This document shows positions 43,276 through 55,843 of a DNA stretch of 64,000 bases, piece after piece; the stretch's first letter is position 1; the number at the start of each line of letters is the position of its first letter. The notes beneath the pieces are model-generated. The model saw nothing but the letters and a program-made list of their open reading frames with translations. It did no database searches and was not told the DNA's origin. Origin of the DNA: Carpediemonas membranifera BICM (taxonomy: Eukaryota > Protista > Fornicata); contig JAHDYR010000066.1 in assembly GCA_019828565.1 (NCBI GenBank), forward strand, positions 186,001-250,000, read 5' to 3'. The position numbers and the translations under genes were made by a program.

Positions 43276-44616
43276 TGTCCCTGCCCCTCCACGGCCGGAA
43301 TACGGCCGTGATTGTAACGGTTTGGTTCGGCTGTGCATTTTATGGCACAATGAACCGCGGTTTCGAAAGTTTCACTATACGCGGTATGCAAAGCGCTAGC
43401 CAGCGTATAGTTGTCAAAAATGGGGTTTTCAGCCCTCAACGACGCTTCGTTGGCGAGTTCTCGACGTTTTTTCTTTTCGGTGCCGAATGAAGGTGCTGCT
43501 CTGCGCTACGTGTGTCCTTCATGAATAACAACATCAATACTTAGTAAAAGCCTTCGTTGCTGCACTGTTTGTGGGATATTGAGGAGTATGTTCACGATTC
43601 TCCTCAAGGCTTCATGAGCGTCATCGAATCGACCTCCTGCGCCCAGGCTCCGGTCATGATCATGGCTGCTATGGTCTGCGGGTTAGTCAGCTAGGTTGCA
43701 GTAGTTCCCATAAAGTACGATAATTACGTCAATGCATGTAAATGCTGCTTTGAAGGATTTCAAAGCAGCCGTTTGAGGATATGGAGAATTATACCGCCGC
43801 AATGAAGGCTATAATCGAGGAACTAAGCGATGACGATGACATTGCCGCCCTCAATCGCGTCTTCCGCCACGTTATTCGCAAGCGTGCTCGTCGACGCGTT
43901 GGATCTACCGCCAACTCCGACAACACGACTAATCAGTCCTCCATTGATGCTTCAACAACCGCTACGGGCTCAACAGTCAACGATCAGGAGCGCCAGCCCG
44001 ATTCCAGCGTGGTTCCGGCAACCGTCGTCGGCGATTCGCGTCCGTCTCGCCGTGCTAGAGGCAAGCGCCGTATCGGCGTCCGTGATCGAGTTCTCCCGCC
44101 GGCAGTCACGGGCGCGGACGTGGTGTTCGAGCCTCCCCGCATTGATCGCGCCACACGGCTGCGGGGTGAGCTCGATCACGTCATCTCGACGGTCACGGCG
44201 ACGTTATCGACATTCTCATCGCATCTAGAGCTGTCAGTGCAGCCGTTCCTCGATGTGTTGATGAGCGGTGCGCTTAACCAGGCATCGCTGACCTCCGTTC
44301 AGCGCCTCGACGGTGGCGTCATCGCTCTGTCTGGGGCAGTCGATGACTACTATCTGCTTGTCGGCTTCCGCAAGTACTTCGATCTTGGCTCCGGTGTCAG
44401 CGACCGGGAGATCATGAACCAGGTATTCAACGGTCGCCGTGCCGGCGATATCCGCCGGGAGGTCCTGGATGAGGCGGCACGCCTTCTTGCCGTTGGGGTC
44501 GACACGGCACGTAGCCACGTCCGCCGGCTCTATCTTCTTACGCATCATGTTCCGTATTATGCAGTGCTACAGCACGCGATCTGGAGCCGGGTGCTGCAGG
44601 GCCGGCAGTGCCTGTA

Positions 44617-44633
44617 TCGATTTGCCAATGACT
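44617..44633 (+). repeat. 17-bp target-site duplication TCGATTTGCCAATGACT (left copy)
   Basis: Exact direct repeat at 55378-55394. Confidence 0.95.
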
Positions 44634-45659
44634 CACAGTTGAAATGTCCGGTATGGGAAGTTGACGAAACCAACCGGAAAAAGGCCAAAAGCTGGCAATC
44701 GGGATTTATCGGATCTCATTGAAAGCTATTCGAGCTCGAAGCGAGCGACGGTGCCCCGCGGCGCCAGCATCCACCAAATGGTAATTTCAGGACCAAGAGT
44801 TCGTCTGCTCTGGGGCACGAGAGCAGAAATGGGAAGTATTCTCCTAACCCACTAGCCATAGGGCACATTGGGGAAGCAAATTGCTCCCCGGAGGAGATCG
44901 CCCGTTGCGAAGCAGGTTAGCGCCAGAGCGGGCCGGCAGAGGACAACTGGCTGCTCCAGGTGAGGTGCGCACCACCTCACCTGGAGCCCACTCCCCTGCC
45001 CTGTATACCTCGCCGTGCGCCAAGCTATGTCGAGCAACAGATGATCGTCCTCGTGTGCCCAAAAATGCACAGAGGCAAAAACCACCCAAAAGGGAATAAG
45101 TTAGCCTCAGTAGGAAAGCGTTGACAGAATACGCAGTACTCTAACAACAAACAAAACCTACCGCCCATGCTCCTGGGACCCACAAGGGGACCAGACGCAA
45201 CTAAACGCTCCTCGCACAAACCCACAAGGGAAATCAACGCGAACAAGCGTACTGCGCCACCTTTATGATTGAAACCCCTACCGTAACCGGTACCCGCAGT
45301 AGGCCCCAGAGGCACTGCGACACGATTGCCTCAGACAACTTAACTGGGGCCATATGGCAAAGTAACCCGAGAGCACCGGGACCGGCGGCCAATAGGTCCT
45401 CACTGGGAGGCCACTGGGCCACACTACTCCGGCGCCCGTGCTCTCATGCCGCCCAAGACCGGGCTTGTGGACGTCATCGCCACGAGAGCCGGGATCGCCG
45501 CCCGCCGCCGGCATAGGCGACAGGGCCACCACAACAGGCCCCCAGTACACCAGCCATACCGGACAACAGACCGGGAGCGCTGAAGGCCCCGTCCACAGCC
45601 CCACAAGAAACGCCCAGCCGAAGCCAAAAGGCATAAACCACCACGGTGTTTACCAGGAC

Positions 45660-46577
45660 TCACAACCTCTTGGGAGTGACGCGACCCAGGAAGGAAACAA
45701 CCGGGCTGCGACCACAAGATACAGGACGAGGGGCGTGAATGGCAACCAGCTGGTGCAGCCGGGCGTCTATGCGAGCACGAAGGCGCTTATAGACCCGCAT
45801 TTGGCCCCTCAGCTCAGCGTCGAAACCCCGAGCCGACTTAGACTCGTGGGGACTCAGGTCCTCGTCACGGTAATTCTGAGCCAGGTAGGAAAAGGCAGCG
45901 GCACGCTCCCGCCACCGGCTGGCCAGGACGTCCACCTGGGCAAAATCGTCAGCTATGGTCCGCAGGAAATGCGCCTCCCAACCCCGAGGAGTCGCCGGGC
46001 CAGGAGTCGGGGACTCCCGAGAAGGAGCGGTGAAGCCCCTGCCGCCACAAGGCAAGGGACTACCCTGGGGCCCGGAGGGGAATATGGGATCCCCCGTCGG
46101 AGTGCGAGGAGGGCCCTGCTTCCCGGGAAAGAGGCGGCGCCCCCGAAATCGGAGTCCAGGCCGTACTCGGGCCAAGGACTCGATAGGGATCGGAGTGCAT
46201 AACCCCTGGTAATGCACCTCCCCCTCTGGGGACCGCTGGGCAGCGGAGGCGCCGGCCGAATGGCCAGGAGGAGGCGTGAAGGTGGAAGGAGAGATGGAAC
46301 GGACGCATGGGGAATAAGGGACAGCAGCCCCGTGTGGGGCGATGCTCCCTGTCCCTGCAATAAGGTTCCCTTTTGGGTTTTCGCCAGACATGTTTTGTGT
46401 GGAAACAAGGTCCGCAACAAACCTCGCATACCTCGCCCCTGAACCATCCGCCCTGAGGAAGGGAAAGGAGCCATACAAGACCAGGACATCGCTGGCTGGC
46501 GCCCCTTGGAACCTCCACCAAACCTCCTCAAGCCCCTCCAAGAAGCTGGCAAAAGTGCACTTCCCGCCTTTTGCCAC
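45660..46577 (-). CDS. Candidate antisense ORF in the LINE 5' region
   Basis: 305 open codons with protein-like helical ends (FLEGLEEVWWRF; FLRTIADDFAQVDVLASRWRERAAAF). Begins at GTG, so the start is unclear. Confidence 0.4.
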   Translation of the reverse strand: MAKGGKCTFASFLEGLEEVWWRFQGAPASDVLVLYGSFPFLRADGSGARYARFVADLVSTQNMSGENPKGNLIAGTGSIAPHGAAVPYSPCVRSISPSTFTPPPGHSAGASAAQRSPEGEVHYQGLCTPIPIESLARVRPGLRFRGRRLFPGKQGPPRTPTGDPIFPSGPQGSPLPCGGRGFTAPSRESPTPGPATPRGWEAHFLRTIADDFAQVDVLASRWRERAAAFSYLAQNYRDEDLSPHESKSARGFDAELRGQMRVYKRLRARIDARLHQLVAIHAPRPVSCGRSPVVSFLGRVTPKRL

Positions 46578-46582
46578 TCCAA

Positions 46583-53900: not shown

Positions 53901-54359
53901 CACTCCCCTCCCCCAGCAACAGTGGCAGAAGCAGAGCCATACTTGGGAGCGCGATCGGCCAGCCCCAGGCCCTCCTGAGCAGGATCAAGCGGTGTTGCCC
54001 CCCTATGTACCCTGGACTCAGAAGGTGACACCATTACTCGCCTGTACACTGTCACCAGAACCGCGGCGGAAACCACCAAAATCCTCTCAGAATGGGCATA
54101 CAACCAGCCCCTGGGAACACAAAGCCACATCATCTGCCAATGCAAGGCGGTAGAACGCCCAGAAGGATGGAATGACATCCTGGCGGAGGCGCATCTACGC
54201 ACACAGTACCACGCCCTAAGGCAAGGGCAGGAGGCGGAGTGGTACAACTCAAGGGCAATCCTGGAAATGCTCTGGCTCCTCCGCAGCGAGGACCATACCG
54301 TCAGAGAGGGACTGCAGAACGGCAGACGTGCCCTTCTGAACCTCCGGAAAGACGGGTAA
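50999..54359 (+). pseudogene. LINE ORF2: APE endonuclease, reverse transcriptase and CCHC-like tail, with three frameshifts
   Basis: APE: IISLNSEG, LLQET, INIYAP, IIGDWN, PTY, STID(Y). RT: GGPDGI, YRPISL, EQVGF, LLDIAKAYDTV, GVKQGCVVAPTLF, FVDD, YLG. Tail: RCC..SHIICQC. Shifts at ~51578, ~53585 and ~54000. Confidence 0.93.
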
Positions 54360-55377
54360 GTACACCATCCCAGAATCCTATGACCTCTGGGACCAGGGTC
54401 AAACTGGGACCCAACCCCCCGCCTCAACCAAAGCGGAGCGCTCCTGGGATCAGCGAGGGACGCAAGCCCCACGTATCCCGGTAGCACCCAGCCGCGGAAG
54501 GGGGACTCAACCCCGAACACTTATCTCGCTAACACACAAACGCTCACCCATACTGGGAACGTAGACAACATTCAGCCGGCAGAACCGGCACACTCTTCAC
54601 ACGTATAAGAAAAAACCCAGAGCCATAGGGCGGGGTACGTATGCACATGTATACACGTACGTGCGAGGTATCGGGGCGCAGCAGCCAAACAGGAGGGTAA
54701 CCATAAGGCAACAATACCACCTGGGCGGCACCTGGACCAAATCAGAGCTGCGCCGAACGGCCCGGCACCCAAAACTTGGAACCAGCCGGAAGCTAGGAAG
54801 AAGCCCTATAGGGAACAAATCCTTGAGGAGGGGATCCATGCCGAAACGGAAAGTGTGGAAGAGCCCGAACGCAGCCGTGAATCATATAGCTACCCAGCGA
54901 TGATCGGTGGGTTTCATAACTGGCCCAATTGCGTGGTACGGCAAACGCCAAGCCCGAAACCGCTTCGGCGGGTGCCTGAAAAATTGCAAACTGGGTCGAA
55001 TGGTATGGAGAACATATCCCTGAGAGGAGCCCTGTAGGGGGAAACCGAGCAGAAGGCCCCGGTGGCGGGTGTGCAGGGCAAGGCCTTGCGGGTGCCAGGC
55101 AGAACGGGGGCCCGAAGGACCCCCAAGAGTAAGACCTGGGTTATCCCGACTTTGGGGGTATCGGGCCAGCCAGTTGATAGGTCAACATGCAAGGGACTAC
55201 CCAGCCTTACCAGCTGGACCCTGACGGTGATGGTGCTAACGCCCCCAATGTAGTATCAGGCTCGCTCACGAAGGGAAGTCAACACGCTAAGGCGTTCCCG
55301 GGGACATGGGGTGGTGCAAACTGGTAATTCCCTGATTTACACAGGTGTACAGGATACGTTAAATTTCTTTCTTTCTT

Positions 55378-55394
55378 TCGATTTGCCAATGACT
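55378..55394 (+). repeat. 17-bp target-site duplication (right copy)
   Basis: Identical to 44617-44633. Confidence 0.95.
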
Positions 55395-55843
55395 GCTACG
55401 CCCTTGCCTGCGCCGAGGAGCTGCCGACCCTCAGCCTCCCCCCGGTAGGTACCCCGGTTTCTTCGTCTTACACAGGATATGACCCGCTTTCAGGTCTACG
55501 AGCGCGACCGGTATTATCGCGTGCTGGCTGTGCGTGGTCACTGGTGGCTGTTCGTTGAGCAGGCCTACCGTGGTCGCGCTGGCTCCTTCTTGCTCCTTGT
55601 CGCCTACGACGGGTTCCCTGAAGCAAGTCTGACGCCGGTTAACGCAGACCTTGTCCGCGTGGCTGTGGTCAACCAGTACCTCAGGGCTCATTCCGAGCTC
55701 TGGGACGTTCTGCCTGAGTCCCTGCAGGTAGAGTTGGAAGAAGTGGTGACCAGTGACGAGGAGTCTGCCGGTGACGAGTAAATGTTCTGATGATCTTGGT
55801 TAGCGCCTTGATAGTCCGTTATTTACACGGCTATGTACAAGGG

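Follow-up and report, generated by a model that had tools for sequence, protein, structure and literature searches.

Can a long terminal repeat (LTR) retrotransposon whose integrase ends in a chromodomain also encode, on the opposite strand and in spliced form, a second chromodomain-like protein? The question is raised by a 64,000-bp stretch of the genome of the fornicate Carpediemonas membranifera BICM (assembly GCA_019828565.1, contig JAHDYR010000066.1, positions 186,001 to 250,000; hereafter, the window), which contains part of a Ty3/gypsy element, referred to as the host element. A preliminary description, made from the sequence alone, had proposed a convergent gene of about 402 codons between the integrase-chromodomain stop codon of this element and its polypurine tract. 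Comparison with a related element confirmed, at the level of sequence, that this antisense gene is a real and conserved accessory gene belonging to a chromodomain-bearing element. The reading that we prefer, and to which we give an even chance of being right as a whole, is that this likely spliced gene encodes a likely nuclear protein whose degenerate chromo-like end engages chromatin or a chromatin protein, and which regulates the element.

The antisense gene is split by a non-LTR retrotransposon (a long interspersed nuclear element, LINE). Its 5' part (43781..44633, plus strand; residues 1-284) is an open frame with coding-like codon use that starts at an ATG at position 43781. The LINE follows (44634..55394, plus strand; 10,761 bp including the second copy of the duplication), bracketed by a 17-bp target-site duplication (left copy 44617..44633, right copy 55378..55394). 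Beyond it, the gene continues to residue 301 (55395..55444, plus strand), reaches the predicted 31-nt intron (55445..55475) and ends with a last exon of 101 codons (55476..55781, plus strand). With the LINE left out, the antisense frame encodes 338 residues if unspliced and the proposed 402 residues if positions 55445-55475 are also removed. The positions given initially for the ATG (43781), the end of the gene (55781) and the integrase stop codon (55844) hold, in agreement with the reading frames, the Pfam matches and the 17-bp duplication. The gene had also been thought invisible until removal of the LINE. This is the case for the full frame, but an open reading frame (ORF) of 313 codons is open from position 43781 in the raw sequence with the LINE still in place, and the last exon, read from the Met codon at 55479, is present in the public protein collection as a separate protein of 100 residues. 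Pieces of the antisense gene thus appear as separate hypothetical proteins, indicating that annotation overlooks or splits up such genes. The N-terminus of the protein is basic and rich in Ser and Thr, and the core that follows is helical, as predicted by eye. The last exon has a beta-rich start, a chromo-like core (approximately 55539-55691) and an acidic tail.

The host element is a chromovirus-type element by its integrase, which has a C-terminal chromodomain. The integrase core (60489..61400, minus strand; PF00665, 46 bits) is in continuous frame with the C-terminus (55844..56068, minus strand), where the frame resumes at 56068 after the insertion of a second LTR element and where a canonical chromodomain is found (PF00385 Chromo, 41 bits, E value 1.9e-10). 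The integrase stop codon occupies positions 55844-55846. The polypurine tract (43276..43290, minus strand) is followed by TG, and its 8-base core, AGGGGCAG, is also located ahead of a TG...CA stretch in the related element described below. The likely 3' LTR (43206..43275, minus strand) is 70 bp long in its TG...CA reading but could extend to 42851, for a length of up to 425 bp; the length cannot be fixed because the 5' LTR of the host element lies outside the window. The element is cut off upstream of position 61400, so that gag, the reverse transcriptase (RT) and the 5' LTR are outside the window. With a LINE in the antisense gene, a second LTR element in the integrase and this truncation, the copy is dead.

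A metagenome scan with the host integrase retrieved four loci (L001 to L004). L001 is a 6308-bp contig whose ends overlap by 100 bp. It is 54% identical to the host integrase in its best integrase segment and contains gag-pol with one frameshift and a chromodomain (PF00385, 30.5 bits). The domain order gag-protease-RT-RNase H-integrase, the corresponding part of which is missing from the window copy, is present in this relative (L001/P0003). L001 carries a homologous antisense gene in the same position and orientation, without the LINE. In both elements, the gene lies between the integrase stop codon and the polypurine tract and is convergent with gag-pol. L002 is AT-rich and lacks a long ORF downstream of pol, and L003 and L004 (1.0-1.7 kb) were outside this comparison. 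Another protein, P0002, is 49% identical to the host integrase. As side observations, L001 can be read as a circle of 6208 bp with a single LTR, a form in keeping with a 1-LTR circle or a tandem array, and its frameshift is in the integrase, near position 5200.

The last exon of the window gene is homologous to L001:5982-6227 (14 of 36 residues identical, E value 4e-7) and the antisense core to L001:281-952 (23% identity, E value 0.001). When the pieces of the L001 gene were joined under the simplest splice model, a protein of 394 residues was obtained, which is related to the 402-residue model from the N-terminus to the last exon (BLASTP E value 2e-10; 23% identity over 396 columns). An uninterrupted relative of the element therefore carries the gene. 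The local alignment score of 125 compares with 37 ± 5.5, and a maximum of 67, for 1000 shuffles. The score was 80 when the window gene was read into the LINE, 89 when the LINE was left out but the gene was unspliced, and 125 when the gene was spliced. The alignment with the uninterrupted L001 stretch passes through the LINE junction in an ungapped block, which confirms the position of the LINE cut.

Codon-position conservation was used to determine which strand is under selection in the last exon, since a sense-strand ORF (55431-55799, minus strand) follows the integrase stop codon and the last exon could be no more than its shadow. The mirror frame is open in both elements, its codon score (0.09) is close to that of the last exon (0.12), and a match of the shadow frame to a bacterial contig was obtained with the last exon. 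However, among 340 aligned codons, 102 keep position 1 only versus 63 that keep position 3 only (p 0.003), and the corresponding numbers for the last-exon core are 14 versus 4 (p 0.03). The alignment score of the antisense strand is 305 versus -55 for the mirror strand, and the free local score of the last exon is 65 versus 23. Conservation of first over third codon positions, together with the low score of the mirror strand, indicates that the antisense protein is the one under selection. The shadow-ORF explanation was not supported by this test and is very improbable. Two facts temper the conclusion that the antisense gene is conserved: the anchors of the strand and codon-position test were picked in the antisense gene's own frame, and L001 is the only full relative that was found, so that the evidence base consists of two full elements and one partial protein (P0001, see below).

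Selection on the protein also bears on another explanation, according to which the locus would function mainly through convergent antisense transcription, with double-stranded RNA or transcriptional interference limiting copy number and the protein being a secondary cargo. The two stop codons are separated by only 62 bp in the window and 44 bp in L001, so that overlapping transcripts are expected, and antisense RNA control is discussed for such elements in the available part of a review (PMC7264820). Conservation at the amino-acid level, combined with divergence at third codon positions, shows however that selection acts on the protein, and we regard the RNA-based explanation as improbable. 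A GTAAA-containing motif was also noted on the sense strand within about 25 bp of the integrase stop codon in both elements (55782-55843 in the window; 5935-5978 in L001); the motif could serve to polyadenylate a short gag-pol transcript that ends before the antisense gene.

The antisense reading frame reaches the last exon only if the 31-nt stretch (GTAGGT...TTACACAG, phase 0) is removed. The preliminary description had taken this stretch for a spliceosomal intron. In the region 55395-55544, 20 GT..AG stretches of 20-60 nt start; seven of them lead to the stop codon at 55781, and only the 31-nt stretch fits host intron size and motif. Four host introns were read from conserved window genes, which we take to be those for LSm2, an L17/L22-type ribosomal protein (two introns) and an FKBP protein. 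These introns are 35, 29, 30 and 29 nt long and all have the form GTnnGT...AnnYAG. The intron rule (GT-AG ends, a length of about 30 nt, a GTnnGT donor and an A six bases from the 3' end) had 25 matches in 128 kb, i.e. both strands of the window, including the four host introns and the candidate. The rule was fixed before L001 was retrieved and was applied unchanged to both strands of L001. It matched three times (30, 29 and 31 nt), each time within the gene and on the antisense strand, for about 0.2 matches expected (P ~0.001). The first match (982-953) starts with the six bases that also open the window candidate and includes a stop codon in frame; the second (325-297) changes the reading frame. 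In the simplest models, introns are located after codons 54, 263 and 313 in L001 versus 301 in the window, with no position shared. The four inferred introns of the antisense genes (55445-55475 in the window; 982-953, 325-297 and 146-17 in L001) are all in phase 0; the phases of the four host introns are 0, 1, 2 and 1.

Several observations weigh against splicing as modeled. The in-window estimate of 0.012 matches expected by chance is partly circular, the candidate having been known when the rule was formulated. The third match in L001 (31 nt) leads to a protein of 324 residues that lacks the last exon, and full length requires either an intron of 130 or 139 nt from the same donor (146) or three small introns. 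The equal spacing of 90 residues between anchors in the two proteins is not decisive, because a frameshift model (101 residues) pairs equally well with the three-intron model (102 residues). More generally, alignment scores do not separate the splice models of L001, nor the splice model from the frameshift model in the window. The 31-nt stretch might be unspliced or rarely spliced. The frame change would then be a mutation or an assembly error, or the main product would be the short form of 338 residues, with the last exon forming a separate small ORF from Met 55479, as in the public annotation. In agreement with this alternative, the 100-residue ORF stands alone in the public collection, neighbouring elements contain several frameshifts, and L001 likewise offers a short form ending before the last exon. 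In contrast, the size and motif of the stretch are those of host introns, and codon use in the unspliced read-through is not coding-like (score of -0.47, versus 0.12 for the last exon). In addition, there is no Met codon at the start of the last exon in L001, where any long protein requires splicing at three places. We therefore consider absent or rare splicing to be an unlikely explanation, only slightly less so than the RNA-based one. The intron proposed initially is thus upheld by host size and motif and by the rule matches in L001; it is likely, on these sequence features, to be a real host-type intron that is spliced out.

The genomic RNA of a retroelement runs from the 5' LTR through gag and pol to the 3' LTR and carries the reverse complement of an antisense gene. 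Introns of such a gene can persist through reverse transcription because the genomic RNA holds their reverse complement, which is hidden from the spliceosome. With rather high confidence, we propose that the short host-type introns would be spliced from the antisense mRNA and yet be copied intact at each transposition.

To evaluate the proposal that the protein has a chromodomain-like end, the last exons of the window gene and of L001 were combined into a two-sequence profile. Comparison with nine retroelement chromodomains gave an hhalign probability of 43.7 (E value 2.4e-4, 64 columns), and none of 150 column shuffles scored as high. In the reciprocal test, only 27 of the 1710 overlapping windows were chromodomain windows, yet these took 11 of the first 25 places, and the chromodomain segment ranked first among 35 pol segments. 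Residues common to both last exons fall on the chromo pattern, i.e. the second strand, the aromatic-x-x-aromatic turn and the V..Y helix. Two positions equivalent to those of the three-residue aromatic cage carry aromatic residues in each element (Y/F and F/Y); at the first cage-equivalent position, the window has L or W, depending on the register, and L001 has F. The TWE-type tryptophan motif that follows GY is absent from both last exons, whereas the tryptophan is present in nine of nine template chromodomains. The presence of aromatic residues at two cage-equivalent positions, combined with the loss of the TWE tryptophan, makes a protein-interaction module likelier than a classical reader of methylated lysine 9 of histone H3 (H3K9me).

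Other results speak against a chromodomain. Neither last exon has a Chromo (PF00385) match in Pfam at E values up to 10. A hidden Markov model (HMM) of retroelement chromodomains gave a marginal score of 3.2 bits for the window exon (78 of 3000 shuffles as high) and -1.4 bits for the L001 exon (922 of 3000). When the templates were limited to the six chromodomains from outside the window, the hhalign probability fell below 2% (E value 0.03). In the reciprocal test, the top window overall was not a chromodomain, and the chromodomain was the best window in only four of the nine proteins having one. Structure prediction was uninformative: the two AlphaFold models of the last exon, with predicted local distance difference test (pLDDT) scores of 58 and 47, are of insufficient quality for a test of the fold. 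In each of them, a beta-meander occupies residues 2-37, in front of the chromo-like core or partly coinciding with it. The best structural match of the poor model was to an unrelated PUR repeat (Z score 3.9, root-mean-square deviation 3.0, 60 residues aligned). Structure comparison of this model returned no chromodomain among the matches listed (36 of the 42 chains with Z scores of at least 2), and Foldseek returned nothing at E values up to 0.001 in PDB or BFVD.

These results leave room for an alternative that accepts the gene and its introns but not the identification of the last exon as a chromodomain, and that regards the protein as a nucleic-acid-binding or RNA-handling accessory factor comparable to plant TRP28 or to retroviral factors of the Rev/Tat type. 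This alternative is consistent with the lack of any Chromo match in Pfam, PDB sequences or the ESM Atlas, with the position of the beta-meander, and with the basic patches that are kept in both proteins. DNA binding has also been proposed for the antisense ORF products of Retand, as stated in the accessible text of PMC11963269. The profile-profile and reciprocal tests favor chromodomains, however, and the residues conserved between the two elements match the chromo pattern (strand, aromatic, small/aromatic, helix with V..Y). The alternative is thus plausible but rather doubtful. Descent of the last exon from a chromo fold has, on the basis of the profile comparison, a somewhat better than even chance of being correct, and classical methyl-lysine reading is less probable than this. 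In summary of this point, the chromodomain-like end proposed initially found weak support in the profile-profile comparison but not in Pfam, PDB sequences or structural models.

Database searches returned few relatives of the antisense protein. The 284-residue part had a single match among 7650 candidates, P0001, an annotated hypothetical host protein of C. membranifera (J8273_6983) that is 78% identical over the first 87 residues. P0001 appears to be a second, diverged copy of the first 87 codons of the gene, the remainder of the P0001 model being unrelated. Among 1.84 billion representatives, the 284-residue part had three matches (P0001, P0014 and P0015); P0014 and P0015 are repeat proteins and were dropped as chance matches. 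A search with L001:281-952 found only its own ORF, and P0017, the other member of that cluster, shares the unspliced tail and is therefore uninformative on splicing. In the ESM Atlas, there was no feature match above 0.79 for either part and no structure with a template modeling (TM) score, by query, of at least 0.5. PDB sequence searches returned nothing below an E value of 0.4, and scans of viral contigs with P0002 and A2 detected no relative. L005, retrieved in one of the 72 stretches of a GTDB scan, was rejected as the reverse frame of a bacterial gene. The Pfam search of the antisense protein gave no Transposase_28 or plant mobile domain match, and a match of the antisense core to COMMD9_HN was set aside (16.9 bits versus a cut-off of 27).

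Within the preferred reading, expression of the antisense gene would start in the stretch of about 490 bp between the polypurine tract and the ATG (43291..43780, plus strand), which is non-coding and a candidate promoter region by position. This stretch displays no DNA similarity to its equivalent in L001 (262 of 300 shuffles scored as high). According to the available part of PMC7264820, gene23 of Grande has its own promoter and a nuclear product, and an antisense promoter beside the polypurine tract is proposed by analogy with this gene. The antisense gene would very probably be transcribed from its own promoter, within the 490-640 bp beside the tract. Arg/Lys clusters are present within the first 100 residues of both proteins, as part of the basic patches, and suggest nuclear import; it is probable that these clusters near the N-terminus would bring the protein to the nucleus. 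There, the last exon would act, with the modest preference stated above, as a chromo-fold derivative engaged in protein interaction. If it is such a derivative, there is an even chance that the protein tunes transcription or silencing of the element, or aids the integrase chromodomain in target choice. The chromatin-targeting or anti-silencing role suggested in the preliminary description may be correct but stands as a proposal.

The layout of the locus is less novel than that description implied, since antisense genes at the same position are known, including one in a chromodomain-bearing element. This gene, brtn of the Boty-like Ty3/gypsy elements of Botrytis and Sclerotinia, was reportedly described by Zhao et al. 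in 2011. As far as the accessible parts of the sources indicate, Grande, RIRE2, Retand, PvRetro13 and the fungal Boty possess antisense ORFs located between pol and the 3' LTR (PMC7264820, PMC11963269, PMC4408406), and Boty-like elements combine brtn with a polyprotein containing a CHROMO domain (PMC4227169, PMC8365987). Boty thus resembles the host element in having an antisense gene between pol and the 3' LTR of a chromodomain-bearing element. It differs by its host, which belongs to another supergroup, and the protein described here has no Pfam match; the two were compared by description only. Maize Grande gene23, rice RIRE2 and Retand TRP28 share the position, orientation, family-wide conservation and unknown origin of their antisense genes with the present family (PMC7264820, PMC11963269, available parts). 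Both the window gene and the L001 gene are on the opposite strand between the pol stop codon and the polypurine tract, the position that defines aORF-3R. Unlike the plant aORF-3R products, the antisense protein matches neither Transposase_28 nor the plant mobile domain. Retand belongs to a non-chromovirus lineage, and the paper on it does not contain the word intron (PMC11963269). Spliced antisense transcripts were, according to the part of a 2020 review that was available, still to be looked for (PMC7264820). Extra ORFs in reverse orientation are an established class in plant elements, whose chromodomains are described on the polyprotein only in the accessible portion of PMC6317226; the supplement of that paper on extra-ORF domains may bear on this point.

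Chromovirus integrase chromodomains of types I and II provide another comparison. The host integrase carries a canonical one, to which the antisense exon is weakly similar; the known ones, in the sources as far as accessible, are fused to the sense-strand integrase. The antisense module lacks the TWE motif. HBZ of human T-cell leukaemia virus type 1 (HTLV-1) is a spliced gene for a basic leucine zipper (bZIP) protein. The likeness lies in a spliced antisense regulator near the 3' end of a retroelement, splicing being a prediction in our case; the differences are the unrelated bZIP protein, the promoter in the 3' LTR and the vertebrate retroviral setting. The available part of PMC7264820 presents HBZ as an antisense retroviral gene.

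No description of this family or of a chromo-like antisense product was found in the literature, subscription papers such as Gomez-Orte 2013 and Steinbauerova 2011 aside. Such an element appears neither in the titles and opening lines of the abstracts of the papers found on Carpediemonas and retrotransposons nor in the accessible part of bioRxiv 10.64898/2026.05.21.726589, and the available parts of PMC5408684 and PMC4007536 contain nothing on such an antisense gene. New here are a protein family of no known kin with a chromo-like end, the fornicate host and the intron turnover. Antisense genes have been described in LTR retrotransposons of plants and of a single fungal family; the present family has no further relatives among the 1.84 billion representatives, and its host is a deep-branching metamonad. 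The candidate chromo-like domain offers a direct assay, in the form of histone-peptide or partner binding, and the non-matching intron sets in a reverse-transcribed gene are a small, testable case of intron turnover.

A broader hypothesis, for which we have limited confidence, is that fornicate chromoviruses possess a second, free-standing antisense chromo-fold protein, that splicing of the last intron toggles the module (338 or 402 residues in the window; 324 or 394 in L001), and that introns have been gained or lost at four positions, none of them shared. If true, this would represent a novel type of chromatin regulator in transposons and, at the same time, a natural setting in which intron gain can be observed.

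The remainder of the window places the host element in a transposon nest that extends from 41.8 kb onward and adjoins a tRNA-Asp gene (41580-41653). Overlapping ORFs on the plus strand (41786-42850) start about 130 bp from this gene and are cut at 42851; the second ends in the beginning of an RT-like sequence without a Pfam match, which is presumably DIRS-like, judging from its motifs. The whole nest may have grown out of a tRNA-adjacent insertion. The region 42910-42983 (minus strand), 300 bp past the polypurine tract of the host element, contains a second purine tract with the same core, followed by a 64-bp TG...CA stretch. Another family member may end here on its 3' side, the host element having inserted into it or next to it.

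The Ty3/gypsy element nested in the host integrase (56073..60488, plus strand) has identical 70-bp LTRs and a 4-bp GGGG target duplication. It displays a frame change between RNase H and integrase (59049-59113) and a weak chromodomain (15.6 bits), and has no antisense gene. The LTRs of the host element and of L001 are possibly 65-70 bp long too, and very short LTRs may be typical of these elements. A further insert (61401-64000) cuts the host integrase. It includes an imperfect hairpin of 107 bp (61732-61838), together with an ORF of more than 520 codons that has no introns (62427 to the end of the window) and no Pfam match, and whose motifs may be those of a DDE transposase. A 14-bp motif common to 43446 and 62076 was discarded as not above chance (score of 35 versus a shuffle maximum of 36).

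The LINE has a frameshifted ORF2 that encodes endonuclease and RT domains (PF14529 and PF03372, under the cut-off; PF00078, 113 bits), and its 3' tail is (TTTC)n-like. Its length of 10.8 kb is unusually large and includes approximately 1.8 kb of 5' sequence and some 4 kb of ORF1-like coding sequence spread over several frames; the ORF1-like region has no Pfam match except for a coiled-coil stretch (49855-50370).

The left 41 kb of the window consist of compact, mostly intronless eukaryotic genes with a G+C content of 59%, compared with 57.1% given for the C. membranifera genome in the accessible text of PMC8516963. Pfam matches identify XPB, a Hook-domain protein, a HYDIN-like protein, Utp13 and V-ATPase H, among others. 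An inverted repeat of 490 bp, 99% identical between its copies (1980-2469 and 5958-6447), flanks the genes for the Hook-domain protein and a membrane protein, and may delimit a segment that can invert, or have arisen by recent duplication or as an artefact of the assembly.

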